NCBI GenBank assembly: GCA_963833095.1
Contig: CAWHWQ010000001.1
Span: 416,001 to 480,000, forward strand
Length of the DNA stretch: 64,000 nt
Source: Vulcanimicrobiota bacterium
Lineage (GTDB): Bacteria > Vulcanimicrobiota > Vulcanimicrobiia > Vulcanimicrobiales > Vulcanimicrobiaceae
Direction of reading: 5' to 3'
Shown: in pieces, positions 16,239-20,013 of the stretch
Numbering within the stretch: the stretch's first letter is position 1
How the letters are laid out: every line of letters begins with the position of its first letter
Program-made: the position numbers and the translations under genes
Notes under the pieces: generated by a model
The model's input: only the letters and a program-made list of their open reading frames with translations
Databases searched by the model: none
What the model was told of the DNA's origin: nothing

Positions 16239-16501
16239 TCATTCATTACGTTTTTCAGCGTCCATCGAACTACTTATTAAACCATATTCGGCCGCCGCGG
16301 ATGCAAGACCCGGGTAACGCCTGTTCTTTACCGCCCGCTGCGCGCAAACCGGCGAACACAGGTAGACGCCACGCCCCGGTTGCCGCTTCCCGACCCGGAG
16401 GGTCCGGCTGCCAGCCGTCGGTACGCCGGACGAACCGCGTCAACGCCGCCTGCGGCTTGAGCTTGCCGGCAGCCGACGCACGTGCGAACCGGGACGGACA
16501 T
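16239..16501 (-). CDS. ylxR: YlxR/RnpM family RNA-binding protein (frameshifted)
   Basis: PVRTCVGCRQ, LTRFVR, GRGVYLC across frames; lies between nusA and infB. Confidence 0.8.
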
Positions 16502-16504
16502 GCG

Positions 16505-17724
16505 CTACTCGCCAAGCCGCTCGCGGCGGAACTCTTCGAGCTTGCGGATGAGCTCGGCATCGACGGATGCAGCACCGCCACTCCGCGGCCCGACTTCGGC
16601 CTCCTCGGCGGCCTCGGCAGCTGGCGCCTCTTCGCCGCGGTGCGCTTCGGCGCGCTCGGCCAGGTAGCGCTCCCGCGCTTCCTCGGCTTCGGTCTCGCTT
16701 GTGATGTCGAGGCGCCAGCCGGTCAGCCGCGCGGCCAGACGCACGTTCTGTCCGTCGCGTCCGATCGCGAGCGAGAGTTGATAATCGGGCACGACGACCA
16801 GCGCGACGCCGTCGTCCTCGAAGAGTTCGACCCTGATCACCTTGGCCGGCGCGAGCGCGTTCATGATGAACGTCGCGGATCGGCGTCCCAGCGAATGATG
16901 TCGATTTTCTCGCCGCGCAAGTTATCGGTGACGTTAGCGATGCGGCTCGACTTCGGGCCCGAGGCACGCGCCGATCGGATCGACTTCGGCGCGATGCGTG
17001 CGCACGGCGACCTTGGAACGGCTGCCGGCTTCGCGCGCGATCGCCATGATCTCGACGATGCCGTCGGCGATCTCCGGAACTTCCAGCTCGAGCAAACGCT
17101 GCACGAGTCCCTCGGCCGCGCGCGACAGAATGACCTGCGGACCCTTGGGCGATTTGCGAACGTCGAGCACGTACGCGCGCATGAAATCGTTGATGCGGAA
17201 CGACTCGCCCGGAACTTGCTCGGAGAGCGGCAGAATCGCTTCGTCGCGACCTTCGAGCATCACGAACATGTTGCGCTGTTCGTAACGCTGAACGGTGCCG
17301 GTTACCAGATCGTTGAGCTTGCGCGCATATTTGTTGAAGACCGTATCGCGCTCGGCCTCGCGGATGCGCTGCACGATCACTTGCTTCGCCGTCTGCGCGG
17401 CGATGCGGCCGAAGTCTTTGGGCGTGACTTCTTCATCGAAGAAATCGCCGGCCTGATACGGCTCGCCGGCCTCTTTCATGGAGATCTCGAGTTTGGGATC
17501 TTCGACCGTTTCGACGACGTACGCGGCGATGGAAGACCTTGATACTCGCCGGTCTGCCGGTCGACGATCACGATCGCGTTGGCTTCGCTGCCGAAATGCC
17601 GCTTGTATGCGGTCAGCAATGCCGCCTCGAGCGCCTCGAGCAGCATCTCGAACGGAATGTTGCGTTCCTTCGCAATGAACTGGAGGACGTCGATAAGTTT
17701 TTCGTCAGCTGCCGATTCTGCCAT
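16505..17724 (-). CDS. nusA: Transcription termination factor NusA (frameshifted)
   Basis: [52 protein letters not shown]. Confidence 0.95.
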
Positions 17725-18215
17725 GTGCTTTCCGTTCGCGTTTGTGGCGTTGAAGATCGGCGCGTGGATCGTATTCGAGATTTGCCGATTTGATGGTGGC
17801 GACCGGAAGCGGCAGTTCGCCATTCTCGGTCTCGAGAATCACCGTTTCGCCGCGCAGCCCGCGAGCGTGCCGCGATGCGTTTTGTTGCCGTTGATTTGGA
17901 GCGAGGTCACGATCCGCGCGCGCTTGCCGGCAAAGCGCTCGTAATCGTTCGGCCGGATCAACGGCCGTTCGAGTCCCGCCGACTCGACTTCGAGCGAGTA
18001 CGGCAGGTCGATCGCCTCGAGCGCGTGATTGATGCGCGCTGCGATGCGTTCGCAGGTGGCCAGATCGACGCCGCCATCCTTATCGATGGTGACGGTCAGC
18101 GAGGTCATGCTGCGACGCGATTGCGCCGCATGTGTGACGATCTCGACACCCGACGATCCCCGTCGTGCGCGATCGCGTCGATCTCACGCTCAAAAAGGTC
18201 CGTAAGTTCCGACAC
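17705..18215 (-). CDS. rimP: Ribosome maturation factor RimP (frameshifted)
   Basis: IDKDGGVDLATCE, YSLEVESAGLERPL; GGAGG RBS before GTG. Confidence 0.9.
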
Positions 18216-18231
18216 CGTCTAGAGGCCTCCC

Positions 18232-18265
18232 AACAAAGAAGCGCGGGACCTGCCCACGCTTACTC
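18232..18265 (-). promoter_or_regulatory. rimP leader terminator-like hairpin
   Basis: AAGCGTGGG-CAGGT-CCCGCGCTT followed by CTTTGTT immediately before the rimP RBS; fits the known GGG/CCC rimP leader. Confidence 0.7.
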
Positions 18266-18281
18266 GATCAAACCGGCTTCC

Positions 18282-18311
18282 ATAGTACCTTAAAATGACG
18301 ACGGGCCGCAA
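18282..18311 (-). promoter_or_regulatory. Putative sigma70 promoter for the rimP operon
   Basis: TTGCGG-18 bp-TACTAT. Confidence 0.55.
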
Positions 18312-18571
18312 GCCCACGTGGCTTGAACGGCCCCCCGTTGAGAACGTCCTATGCGAATTTTCGCGCGGTAGCTGGATACGTCCAGCCGGCGTCAGCGCCT
18401 CGAAGCGCTGCTTTGGTGCGCGTATTCGCGGGCTATATGGCCCGGTGGATCTTGCGGCTCCAAGTCGGCCGCCCTCCCTGCAGGGTTCGCGTTCCGCAAA
18501 CCCGTGGCGTTTTTGGGAGCTTATGCTCCCAAAATCCGCAGCTGATATGCTGCAGCATCCACTGGATGCTG
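18292..18571 (-). ncRNA. Candidate novel multi-hairpin ncRNA or long structured leader
   Basis: About ten consecutive hairpins starting just after a TTGCTG-17-TAGAAT promoter; no credible ORF. Confidence 0.6.
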
Positions 18572-18576
18572 TCTAC

Positions 18577-18605
18577 ATTCTATTCCGATAAAAGTCGTAC
18601 AGCAA
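18577..18605 (-). promoter_or_regulatory. Putative sigma70 promoter
   Basis: TTGCTG-17 bp-TAGAAT. Confidence 0.65.
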
Positions 18606-18621
18606 GTGGGAATCACCCAAC

Positions 18622-20013
18622 CTACGGCGACGGAGGAGACGGGCGAGTGAACGGCACCAGCGCGCGCTCGGTGCATGGTGCGCTAGCGTGCGCCTCCACG
18701 ATCGGCGGTCCGAGGCCACCGTGAGCGGAACCACCAACGGATGTGCTCACAATGATCCCGCCGGCGACATTGTGCGTCATGTTCCCCTGCATTGCGACTG
18801 GTTGTGAGTTCTGTGGATAGCGTACCAGCCAGCCTTCGCAGATTAGCGCTGGGCCCACGCGATGGGTACTCGTCACCCACATCCGATCGAGTGCATCGCT
18901 GCCCGCGCCACGCTCTTCGTATGTGAACTTGGTCATCGCGACGACATCGGGTGGCGGCGTCGGATCCATCGAGCCGTTGAGCCCAACGTGGAAATTCGTG
19001 CTCGATTGCGTCGGGTTGACCGCATTGTGCGGGATCATTTTGCCGAGCAAATCGTTGAGATCGTTGTGAATTCCCGTTCCGGTCGAACGGCCGGACCCGG
19101 CCCCACCTGAAGCCGGCGGTTTTGGGGTCGGTGGCACCACGATCGGACGCTCCGGCCCGCTCTTTGTCCCCGCGTTTCCGGGCTTTGGCCCGGGCGAACC
19201 CTCGGCCTTGGGACCGGGCGACGGGTGCGTTCCGGTGGTCGTCGCTAGCTTGGCGGCGCCTTGCGTCGGGCTTGGGCTCGGAACGCCTGGATTCGCCGCC
19301 GGCGCTTTGCTCGGTTGATTGGCTGGTTGCGGGGATGCGCTCGGAGCGATCGTTGCGCGCGAAGCAACGACGGTCGCTGCGGTGGGAGCAGCTGTCGGCG
19401 CAGCGCTTGGCGCGGGCGTCGCCGGTCTGGATGTCGGTGCCGCAGTTGGTGCTGGTGGACGCGCTGTCGGTTTTGCGGTCGGCACGATCGACGGAACGGG
19501 ACTTGGAGCGGCAGTCGGCGGGATTCGGACCGCGACCGATTCGACCGCGACCGATGGCATCGCGGTCGGCACGGCGGGCAATTCATTTTGTGGCTTCGGC
19601 TCGTAAATCGCCGTTGTGGGCTCAGGGTTGGGTTGGGTGGAAGCTTGCGGCGCAGGCGTCGGGTTCGGCGGCGCGGTCGGCTTGAATTGCGAAAGCTCGT
19701 GGTGCTGCGGGGGTTGTGGTTGGCGCTTGGGTTGCACGAGCGGCGGATGATGCACAACCGGCGCGATGCGCGGGACATTTGGAACCGGCGCGGCTTGTTG
19801 CGCCGGCGCCGCCACTTGCGCAACAATCGGCGCGCGCTGCTCAAGGGTGACGAGCGTCCCTCCGGAGACCGATTCGCTTGCGCCTTCCTGCGACGAGCTC
19901 GAGACCAACGAAAAAAGTAGCGCGGCCAGGAGCGCATGCACGACCAACGATGCGAGGTAGCTCCCCGCGAGTCGCTCGCGCCGTCGTGGGTCACGCGGAT
20001 CGCGTTTGAGCAT
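18622..20013 (-). CDS. Pro/Ala/Thr-rich membrane-anchored protein with a TonB/TolA-like architecture
   Basis: N-terminal TM with SxxxH (ASLVVHALL), about 250 aa Pro-rich linker, and an unrecognised C-terminal domain with two Cys. Confidence 0.7.
   Translation of the reverse strand: MLKRDPRDPRRRERLAGSYLASLVVHALLAALLFSLVSSSSQEGASESVSGGTLVTLEQRAPIVAQVAAPAQQAAPVPNVPRIAPVVHHPPLVQPKRQPQPPQHHELSQFKPTAPPNPTPAPQASTQPNPEPTTAIYEPKPQNELPAVPTAMPSVAVESVAVRIPPTAAPSPVPSIVPTAKPTARPPAPTAAPTSRPATPAPSAAPTAAPTAATVVASRATIAPSASPQPANQPSKAPAANPGVPSPSPTQGAAKLATTTGTHPSPGPKAEGSPGPKPGNAGTKSGPERPIVVPPTPKPPASGGAGSGRSTGTGIHNDLNDLLGKMIPHNAVNPTQSSTNFHVGLNGSMDPTPPPDVVAMTKFTYEERGAGSDALDRMWVTSTHRVGPALICEGWLVRYPQNSQPVAMQGNMTHNVAGGIIVSTSVGGSAHGGLGPPIVEAHASAPCTERALVPFTRPSPPSP

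Follow-up and report, generated by a model that had tools for sequence, protein, structure and literature searches.

What is encoded in the gap in front of rimP in the Vulcanimicrobiota bacterium studied here? The window, that is, the whole stretch of 64,000 nt that was analysed (contig CAWHWQ010000001.1 of assembly GCA_963833095.1, positions 416,001 to 480,000), carries a hairpin-rich element on its minus strand, between a proline-rich open reading frame (ORF) of 463 amino acids (18622-20013) and the gene run headed by rimP. The original prediction described it as a promoter-driven series of ten hairpins with recurring AU-rich loops and proposed either a noncoding RNA of CsrB-like architecture or a leader of nusA-infB. 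We find that the minus strand indeed appears to encode a structured and uncatalogued RNA, but this RNA also contains a conserved short ORF (sORF). We suggest that the element is an autonomous, translated and structured small RNA which acts as a ribosome-gated switch, a combined claim for which the chances seem to us evenly balanced. An autonomous small RNA gene that is both structured and translated is, judged from sequence conservation, fairly probable. The specific mechanism by which it would gauge the translation of polyproline is tentative.

A conserved reading frame with an invariant Pro-Pro-Gly motif

The counts for the reading frame refer to 78 distinct sequences. A covariance model with a structure of 44 pairs matched all 78 loci to which it was applied, namely the window's own (L009) and 77 of 103 related loci (L010-L032 and L039-L118); the other 26 had been left out as duplicates or for want of a full-length match to a first model. 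The best-conserved part of the element is a Shine-Dalgarno sequence followed by an sORF with a UUG start codon (Table 1). GGAGG is found 4-9 nt 5′ of the start codon in 77 of the 78 sequences. The Shine-Dalgarno sequence is complementary to the 3′ end of the 16S rRNA, which was taken from two relatives as no 16S rRNA was found in the window's own incomplete assembly. The start codon is TTG in 75 sequences, GTG in two and CTG in one. Codons 2-8 read E-P-Q-D-P-P-G, and P6, P7 and G8 (18448-18440 in the window) are invariant in all 78 sequences. Variation at the third codon position is mostly synonymous (GAA/GAG, CAA/CAG, CCA/CCG, GGC/GGT/GGA). The usual peptide is hydrophilic and consists of MEPQDPPG and 8-9 variable residues, thus 16-17 codons, and the frame is closed by TAA (37), TAG (35) or TGA (5). 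A length of 15-18 codons is observed in this frame in 62 of the 78 sequences. For the two remaining frames, whose median open lengths are 32.5 and 37 codons, the number of such sequences is only 1 and 3. The sORF further includes an invariant single-stranded stretch, CAAGAUCCACC. In the window it has 23 codons, with CAA at the usual stop position (18415-18413; codon 17-18 in most relatives). A conserved ORF thus explains about 50-70 nt of the region, and to this extent the noncoding RNA of the original prediction does not hold.

The reading frame is part of a covarying fold

The RNA spanning 18280-18575 folds on the minus strand with -140 kcal/mol, compared to -108 +/- 5.2 kcal/mol for 200 shuffled sequences (z = -6.1, none of the 200 as good). 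The signal of the plus strand of the hairpin region is weaker (z = -4.25). In the alignment (75 distinct rows) 89.2% of the cells are standard pairs, but only 33-48% after a shift of the 3′ partners by one to three columns. Both sides have changed at 36 of the 44 pairs, and none of 500 shuffles reaches any of the observed measures. Many pairs are G-U in the relatives, for example in 16, 15, 13 and 12 sequences at four of them, which fixes the strand as minus.

Hairpin H0 lies around the start codon. Compensatory variants of its stem are GCGA/UCGC, GUGG/UCAC and GCGU/ACGC, and these alter codon 3. RNAalifold proposed a UGGA/UCCA pairing near the start codon instead, which we rejected: it is lost in sequences with UUGACA/UUGUCA, while GCGG/CCGC is kept. 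Hairpin H1 has changes on both sides at three of its five pairs. The next helix, P2, is long-range. Its strands lie about 55 nt apart, the 5′ one within the sORF, whose stop codon is normally found just 3′ of it. Helix P2 closes a three-way junction enclosing the hairpins HA and HB. As a check that depends less on the fitted alignment we compared duplex energies of helix P2, which amount on average to -15.2 kcal/mol with its own partner, -12.5 with the partners of other genomes and -6.5 with shuffled ones; the own partner is better than those of other genomes in 61 of 75 cases. HA shows compensatory changes at all six pairs, and at the stem-loop junction of HB the sequence GGACG is nearly invariant. 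An A-rich linker connects the three-way junction to the terminator T1. The structure is thus conserved in the relatives and extends well beyond the sORF, with about 110 nt of covarying structure outside of it. Sequestration of the Shine-Dalgarno sequence by a downstream CUCC was also considered and rejected, as it is seen in few sequences only and is explained by helix P2.

Eight of the ten hairpins originally proposed fit this fold. In place of the two others (18419-18430 and 18353-18364) the fold has the strands of helix P2. No Rfam family was matched: Rfam 15 with the gathering scores gave nothing in the whole window, and a search of 18100-18750 that allowed E up to 10 yielded Transposase-2 alone, with 12.7 bits against a cut-off of 42.7.

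A proposed ribosome-gated RNA

How could reading frame and fold be connected? Helix P2 starts 16 nt past the first base of the Pro7 codon. For a ribosome with Pro7 in its P site the leading edge is expected about 16 nt downstream, according to the known size of toeprints and footprints. Pro-Pro-Gly is described as a pause motif which is relieved by EF-P (PMC5021804). This pause motif together with its spacing of one ribosome footprint to helix P2 makes a ribosome-gated RNA the best explanation in our view.

We suggest that the switch could operate in the following way. When a ribosome pauses at Pro-Pro-Gly and Pro7 occupies the P site, its leading edge would lie at the first pair of helix P2. 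H0 and H1 would be melted and the junction made up of helix P2, HA and HB would remain folded. Once it clears the motif the ribosome would unzip helix P2 until termination. The fraction of folded junctions would then report how fast polyproline is passed and would depend on the activity of EF-P and on the supply of Pro- and Gly-tRNA. Candidate outputs are the stability of the RNA, binding of a protein to the conserved HB hairpin and junction, and a trans-acting function; leaky read-through at T1 could in addition contribute to the transcription of rimP-nusA-infB. A more far-reaching version, which we regard as rather unlikely, would be a family-specific gauge of polyproline: an abundant small RNA whose junction state is set by ribosomes clearing the N-terminal Pro-Pro-Gly. 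Such a gauge would convert the EF-P and Pro-/Gly-tRNA capacity of the cell into an RNA-structure signal, and this signal would act on rimP-nusA-infB-rbfA either in trans or via T1 read-through and occlusion of promoter P2.

Alternatively, the sORF could simply be an ordinary small-protein gene with a functional peptide of 16-17 residues, and the structure would only stabilise the mRNA or tune its translation. Such a gene would account for the conserved Shine-Dalgarno sequence, start, frame and stop and for MEPQDPPG, which is kept at the amino-acid level through synonymous codon changes. It would not account for the C-terminal half of the peptide, which varies freely while its nucleotides covary with a distant strand, nor for a length that ranges in some members from 11 to more than 40 residues. 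The compensatory changes in H0, which come at the expense of codon 3, and the extensive covarying structure outside the ORF also argue against this explanation, and we consider it quite improbable.

Several points weigh against the proposed translated and ribosome-gated RNA. The evidence that suggests translation of the sORF is its conservation, and the conserved stop position has been lost in five of the 78 sequences, the window included. In one genome with an element away from rimP (G164) the motif is PPK. The alignment used for counting pairs had been fitted to the proposed structure, and the counts overstate the number of independent events because many of the sequences are close kin. As modelled, T1 is indifferent to the position of the ribosome (see below). 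The sole coverage by an RNA library (run X15) consists of contigs from a related strain which span the flanking genes and define neither ends nor strand; these could be DNA carry-over or read-through and were not counted as evidence.

Boundaries of the element

The proposed small RNA appears to be encoded by a self-contained gene that extends from P1, a conserved promoter of the sigma-70 type, to terminator T1. The hexamers TTGCTG and TAGAAT of P1 and the 17-nt gap between them are exactly as originally described, but the -35 hexamer matches the consensus at 3 of 6 positions only. This is why P1 is absent from the calls of the promoter scanner. The argument for P1 comes from conservation: in all 78 distinct homologues the best upstream promoter-like site is TTGnnn-spacer-TA[G/C/A]AAT, with a spacing of 17 nt in 70 of them and TAGAAT (28), TACAAT (24) or TAAAAT (10) as -10 hexamer. 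Transcription would start near 18570. The distance from P1 to the start codon is 30-156 nt (median 48.5 nt). Within the first 32 nt past the predicted start 59 of the 78 homologues have a hairpin of at most -5 kcal/mol, although of differing sequence.

The conserved core of the element comprises 18478-18292. Upstream of it conservation is interrupted: 18640-18565, that is, the end of the ORF and the promoter, is conserved within the genus and 18477-18231 across the family, whereas 18564-18478 is not conserved. The latter segment contains three of the ten proposed hairpins and most of a fourth. The hairpins proposed at 18483-18553 belong to a segment which the relatives lack or have in another form, and the contigs of all four sequencing runs skip it. 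In these related-strain contigs (three DNA libraries and one RNA library) 18479-18564 is replaced by 23 other letters, as in genome G009, and so this segment of 86 nt is polymorphic between strains.

At the other end, the U run that had been noted after the last hairpin is present, and the terminator scan flagged the inner part of T1. At least 4 T are found within 8 nt 3′ of the stem in 64 of 72 sequences, and in 26 of the 72 the number of T is below 5. T1 also occurs without the element in other lineages; in locus L103 it comes immediately after the upstream gene's stop codon. As both T1 and the promoter P2 of rimP are present in this lineage lacking the element, they predate it, and the element looks as if it had been inserted between the upstream gene and T1.

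That rimP has its own promoter and leader, as the original prediction supposed, is supported by the relatives. In promoter P2 the alignment columns T204, A205 and T209 are invariant, and 66 of 73 sequences have a TTGCGG-like hexamer with TAnnnT at a distance of 17 or 18 nt behind it. Where T1 does not contain the TTGCGG hexamer, a separate TTGCGN-17-TATNCT site follows. The -35 hexamer of promoter P2 is located in the unpaired or 3′ part of T1. Termination at T1 would thus leave the polymerase positioned on promoter P2, so that promoter occlusion is possible.

Distribution and loci away from rimP

When 40 relatives were searched at the DNA level, all 17 genomes of the same genus proved to have the locus and five of seven further genera in the family to have parts of it, invariably flanked by the same pair of genes. 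None of the conclusions depends on the unpublished genome G036. With the covariance model we searched 151 genomes of the phylum, of which 58 were matched, namely the window's own and 57 of 71 others of the family, each with one match per genome. None of the 79 genomes from 20 other families of Eremiobacterota gave a match, although absence in the searched genomes is not proof of absence. In the DNA search genome G015 has two copies of the locus (C21:160442-160843 and C32:48007-48251), unlike all other genomes; this may be due to strain heterogeneity or to contamination of the bin. A near-identical element is also found on contigs titled Alphaproteobacteria, Acidoferrum or Acidiferrales (L052, L071, L075, L079 and L086), which are probably mis-binned contigs of Eremiobacterota.

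Five genomes, which belong to divergent genera (G021, G156, G157, G164 and G165), have their match away from rimP. These units have a promoter of the TTTACA-17-TATACT/TATAAT type, a 5′ hairpin and the same Shine-Dalgarno sequence, and their sORFs include MESQNPPGHLAGV, MGSQNPPGHFAGV, MASQDPPGQ... and MTSQDPPGS.... Here Pro-Pro-Gly is encoded by CCA CCC GGG or CCG CCG GGG (CCC GGG in G021 and G156). The motif is thus kept with different codons, which points to selection on the peptide or on its decoding. The genes 3′ of these elements code for an AurF-like protein (a weak Pfam match below the cut-off), an ammonium transporter, which begins 320 nt past a genuine terminator, and proteins for which Pfam gave no match. 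In G021 the upstream gene codes for a divergent E1 dehydrogenase. A link to the proline-rich ORF upstream of the window's element was rejected, as a homologue of this ORF is absent at the loci away from rimP. One of these loci (L191, on contig C4 of G157) has, about 100 nt past the first sORF, a second tandem sORF with its own AGGAGG and the sequence M-T-E-D-P-P-K-E-Y-P-S; it looks like a duplicated Pro-Pro mini-ORF.

We regard the element as autonomous because it is found away from rimP, because T1 exists without it and because rimP has its own promoter P2.

Relation to the rimP operon

Its position also suggests another role. The element could be a cis-acting leader-peptide attenuator of rimP-nusA-infB, in which translation of the Pro-Pro-Gly sORF or the level of NusA sets the read-through at T1. 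P1 would then be the promoter of the operon and the rimP-leader hairpin further downstream a second, tandem attenuator. The element does lie directly 5′ of rimP in the window, in all 17 congeners and in most of the family, its sORF would supply the regulatory codons, and the interrupted U tract of T1 makes some read-through plausible. Moreover, tandem terminators before rimP are reported from Gammaproteobacteria and autoregulation by NusA was proposed (PMC2965389), and proline-codon leader ORFs are reported to control attenuation of Salmonella mgtCBR (PMC3641672).

An attenuator would, however, be expected to have a competing antiterminator, and none was found by constrained folding of the 78 sequences under an equilibrium model. 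T1 has a mean pairing probability of 0.83 when no ribosome is present, of 0.88 when one sits at Pro-Pro-Gly (the RNA being covered up to 15 nt beyond the Pro7 codon) and of 0.82 when one is placed at the stop codon; values under 0.5 are confined to 3, 2 and 5 sequences, respectively. As the stop codon of the sORF is located more than 100 nt 5′ of T1, a coupled ribosome cannot mask the terminator. Between T1 and rimP there is promoter P2 in 66 of 73 sequences, T1 and promoter P2 occur in other lineages without the element, and the element occurs at loci unrelated to rimP. The genomes G021 and G156 fit an attenuator better: there the element is found 18-70 nt before a gene other than rimP, the last hairpin has no U run and no recognisable promoter was found between element and gene. 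The leader of nusA-infB, which the original prediction had offered as its second option, thus stays a live rival, but a weakened and in our opinion unlikely one.

The rimP-leader hairpin itself (AGCGUGGGC-nn-GUCCCGCGCUU) and its U-rich tail are invariant in all 24 aligned relatives. The pattern is found in at least 119 GTDB contigs, which are mostly from Eremiobacterota and include lineages without the upstream element. As the hairpin shows no covariation at all, recognition by a sequence-specific protein is suggested. Rfam gave no match to it at E up to 10 (18100-18750); the rimP-leader is presumably family RF01770, whose presence in the searched library was not confirmed. According to Naville and Gautheret (2010) the rimP-leader is a terminator-like hairpin with GGGc...gCCC that was proposed to respond to NusA (PMC2965389). 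The window agrees approximately with this motif, with a stem GGGC-AG-GUCCC, a U stretch and a location in the 5′ untranslated region of rimP. The likeness is limited to this hairpin with its GGGC...CCC stem and U-rich tail, and the upstream element made up of sORF and three-way junction is not part of any described rimP leader.

Comparison with known systems

The nearest analogues of a ribosome-gated RNA are the mgtCBR and mgtA leaders of Salmonella with the sORFs mgtP and mgtL. They also have an sORF with consecutive proline codons in a structured 5′ RNA, and pausing is reported to be read out through RNA folding and to depend on EF-P and Pro-tRNA (PMC3641672, PMC5299641, PMC6460261). In contrast to these leaders our element does not have a pair of alternative stem-loops that decides over a terminator; instead the 3′ half of the ORF closes a three-way junction. 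The element moreover ends in a terminator of its own, behind which the next gene has a separate promoter, and it comes from a different phylum and has no sequence similarity to the Salmonella leaders.

Arrest peptides of the RAPP/RGPP type (SecM, ApdA, ApdP, ApcA) are likewise small upstream ORFs with Pro-Pro motifs. They are reported to stall ribosomes and thereby regulate the neighbouring gene (PMC12992588, PMC7897499). Their motif, which lies towards the C-terminal end of a peptide that carries a localisation signal, is refractory to EF-P, and the stall releases a ribosome-binding site further downstream (PMC12992588). Here, however, Pro-Pro-Gly occupies residues 6-8 (Q-D-P-P-G residues 4-8) of a hydrophilic peptide of 16-17 residues, and folding revealed no ribosome-binding site sequestered by adjacent hairpins.

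A further group with similar architecture are the dual-function small RNAs, for example SR1/SR1P, SgrS/SgrT and RNAIII/hld. They are short structured transcripts with their own promoter and terminator which encode a small peptide (PMC12310071). The element appears to share promoter, terminator and small ORF with them, but its peptide is shorter and the coding region itself is a structural strand.

The CsrB/RsmZ sponges, to which the element was originally likened, are transcripts of about 200-300 nt with a series of hairpins and their own promoter and terminator. By analogy the element might be a noncoding RNA that titrates a protein through repeated AUA-type loops. Many hairpins do follow each other in the window, and the conserved HB loop and the neighbouring junction could bind a protein. 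The hairpins are, however, heterogeneous, one pair of them is in fact a long-range helix, and the direct-repeat-like ones are not paralogous. Whereas a sponge has many conserved copies of one loop motif, the loops differ from each other here. The AU-rich motif is not conserved either: the relatives lack the loops of hairpins 1-4, AUAUCA and AUAA are located in the variable insert and the loop of H1 varies. The element is a single-copy structure without a repeated unit, contains a conserved, translated-looking sORF and does not match any Csr/Rsm family of Rfam, even at E up to 10 (18100-18750). A sponge thus appears highly implausible.

Similarly small is the chance that the element is a decoy for the 30S maturation or initiation factors encoded next door, which it would bind by imitating the 3′ end of 16S rRNA. 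The idea derives from the consensus GCGGUUGGA at H0, which resembles a stretch in the 16S rRNA of two relatives, GCGGCUGGA, located just 5′ of the anti-Shine-Dalgarno sequence, and from the neighbouring genes rimP, infB and rbfA. Yet the match comprises only 8 of 9 nt, it is lost in the genus of the window (GCGGUUUGGAG; GCGGCCGACUUGGAG in the window itself) and it is fully explained by the stem, the start codon and the Glu codon; nor is the element confined to the neighbourhood of these genes. The resemblance of 18454-18472 to the 16S rRNA (2985-2999 in L193 and 2984-2998 in L194; 8 of 9 nt) is probably due to chance.

A literature search, which did not extend to supplements, gave no description of such an element and no regulatory RNA from Eremiobacterota. 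Bacteria of this phylum are abundant in peat, permafrost and soils and are almost uncultured. The element therefore appears to be a new family of RNA and sORF, while the general kind, that is, short-ORF RNAs that sense the ribosome, is already known. It combines a strongly covarying RNA fold with a conserved mini-ORF carrying an invariant ribosome-pausing motif. Its design would differ from the classical terminator/antiterminator leaders in two respects, namely by a coding strand which is at the same time the closing helix of a three-way junction and by a pause site one ribosome footprint 5′ of this helix. With about 200 nt the element is a compact test system for the sensing of polyproline and EF-P. 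In addition the organisation of the rimP-nusA-infB control region in Eremiobacterota is laid out here.

Table 1. Features of the element and of the adjoining rimP control region (positions in the window)
Feature	Positions	Strand	Remarks
Promoter P1	18577..18605	minus	-35 TTGCTG 18605-18600, 17-nt spacer, -10 TAGAAT 18582-18577
5′-terminal stem-loop AGCAUCC-AGU-GGAUGCU	18554..18570	minus	in the minimum free energy and centroid folds
Variable 5′ leader segment, three hairpins (hairpins 2-4 of the original prediction)	18479..18553	minus	alignable only with the closest relative
Shine-Dalgarno sequence GGGAGGG	18472..18478	minus	AAGGAGG in most relatives
Hairpin H0, stem GCGGC/GCCGC, UUG start codon in loop	18454..18472	minus	4/4 pairs form in 70/78
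sORF	18392..18463	minus	UUG 18463-18461, MEPQDPPGHIAREYAHQSSASRR, UGA 18394-18392
Hairpin H1 GGGCC-AUAU-AGCCC, codons 7-12, directly 3′ of Pro-Pro-Gly	18430..18443	minus	91.6% of cells paired
Helix P2, 5′ strand GCGAAU-A-CGCGC (sORF codons 12-16)	18418..18429	minus	10/10 pairs with compensatory changes
Hairpin HA, first arm of the three-way junction	18393..18410	minus	81.6% and 95.3% paired (two helices)
Hairpin HB GCUGG-ACGUAU-CCAGC	18371..18386	minus	94.1% paired; C-G to U-A in 7 sequences
Helix P2, 3′ strand GCGCG-AAA-AUUCGC	18353..18366	minus	as for the 5′ strand
Terminator T1, nested hairpin 18338-18298 then CAUUUU	18292..18338	minus	helices 95.7% and 96.2% paired
rimP promoter P2	18282..18311	minus	-35 TTGCGG 18311-18306 inside the 3′ half of T1, 18-nt spacer, -10 TACTAT 18287-18282
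rimP-leader hairpin 18261-18239, interrupted U tract 18238-18231	18231..18261	minus	followed by the rimP Shine-Dalgarno sequence and the GTG start 18215-18213

Neighbouring genes and assembly

Downstream of the element the gene order is rimP-nusA-infB-rbfA-DHH phosphoesterase-truB-ribF. A three-way-junction regulator of the S15 type was rejected, as rpsO is not among the genes after infB in the window. The upstream ORF (18622-20013, minus strand) is extremely proline-rich with many PP motifs and an N-terminal hydrophobic segment, and no Pfam match was found for it. It is syntenic with rimP in several families; its architecture gives the mere impression of being TonB-like. On the plus strand the ORFs 18295-18591 and 18323-18724 were rejected as genes because both span the non-conserved insert, and Pfam gave no match.

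The element is single-copy in its own genome. All other matches of the DNA search there were at most 24 nt long, with E values of at least 0.018, and an origin from a repeat or a mobile element was rejected in view of the single copy.

The assembly consists of eight contigs and is 80.7% complete. In the window rimP and nusA are broken into several ORFs, with nusA fragments at 16270-17823. In rimP all four sequencing runs insert a T after 18162 and two of them an A after 17861. Since the runs insert these bases, the frameshifts are assembly errors by single-base deletion and the genes are not real pseudogenes; such deletions may contribute to the completeness estimate of 80.7%. For the element itself, DNA contigs of the public run X1 reproduce 18296-18700 without any difference.

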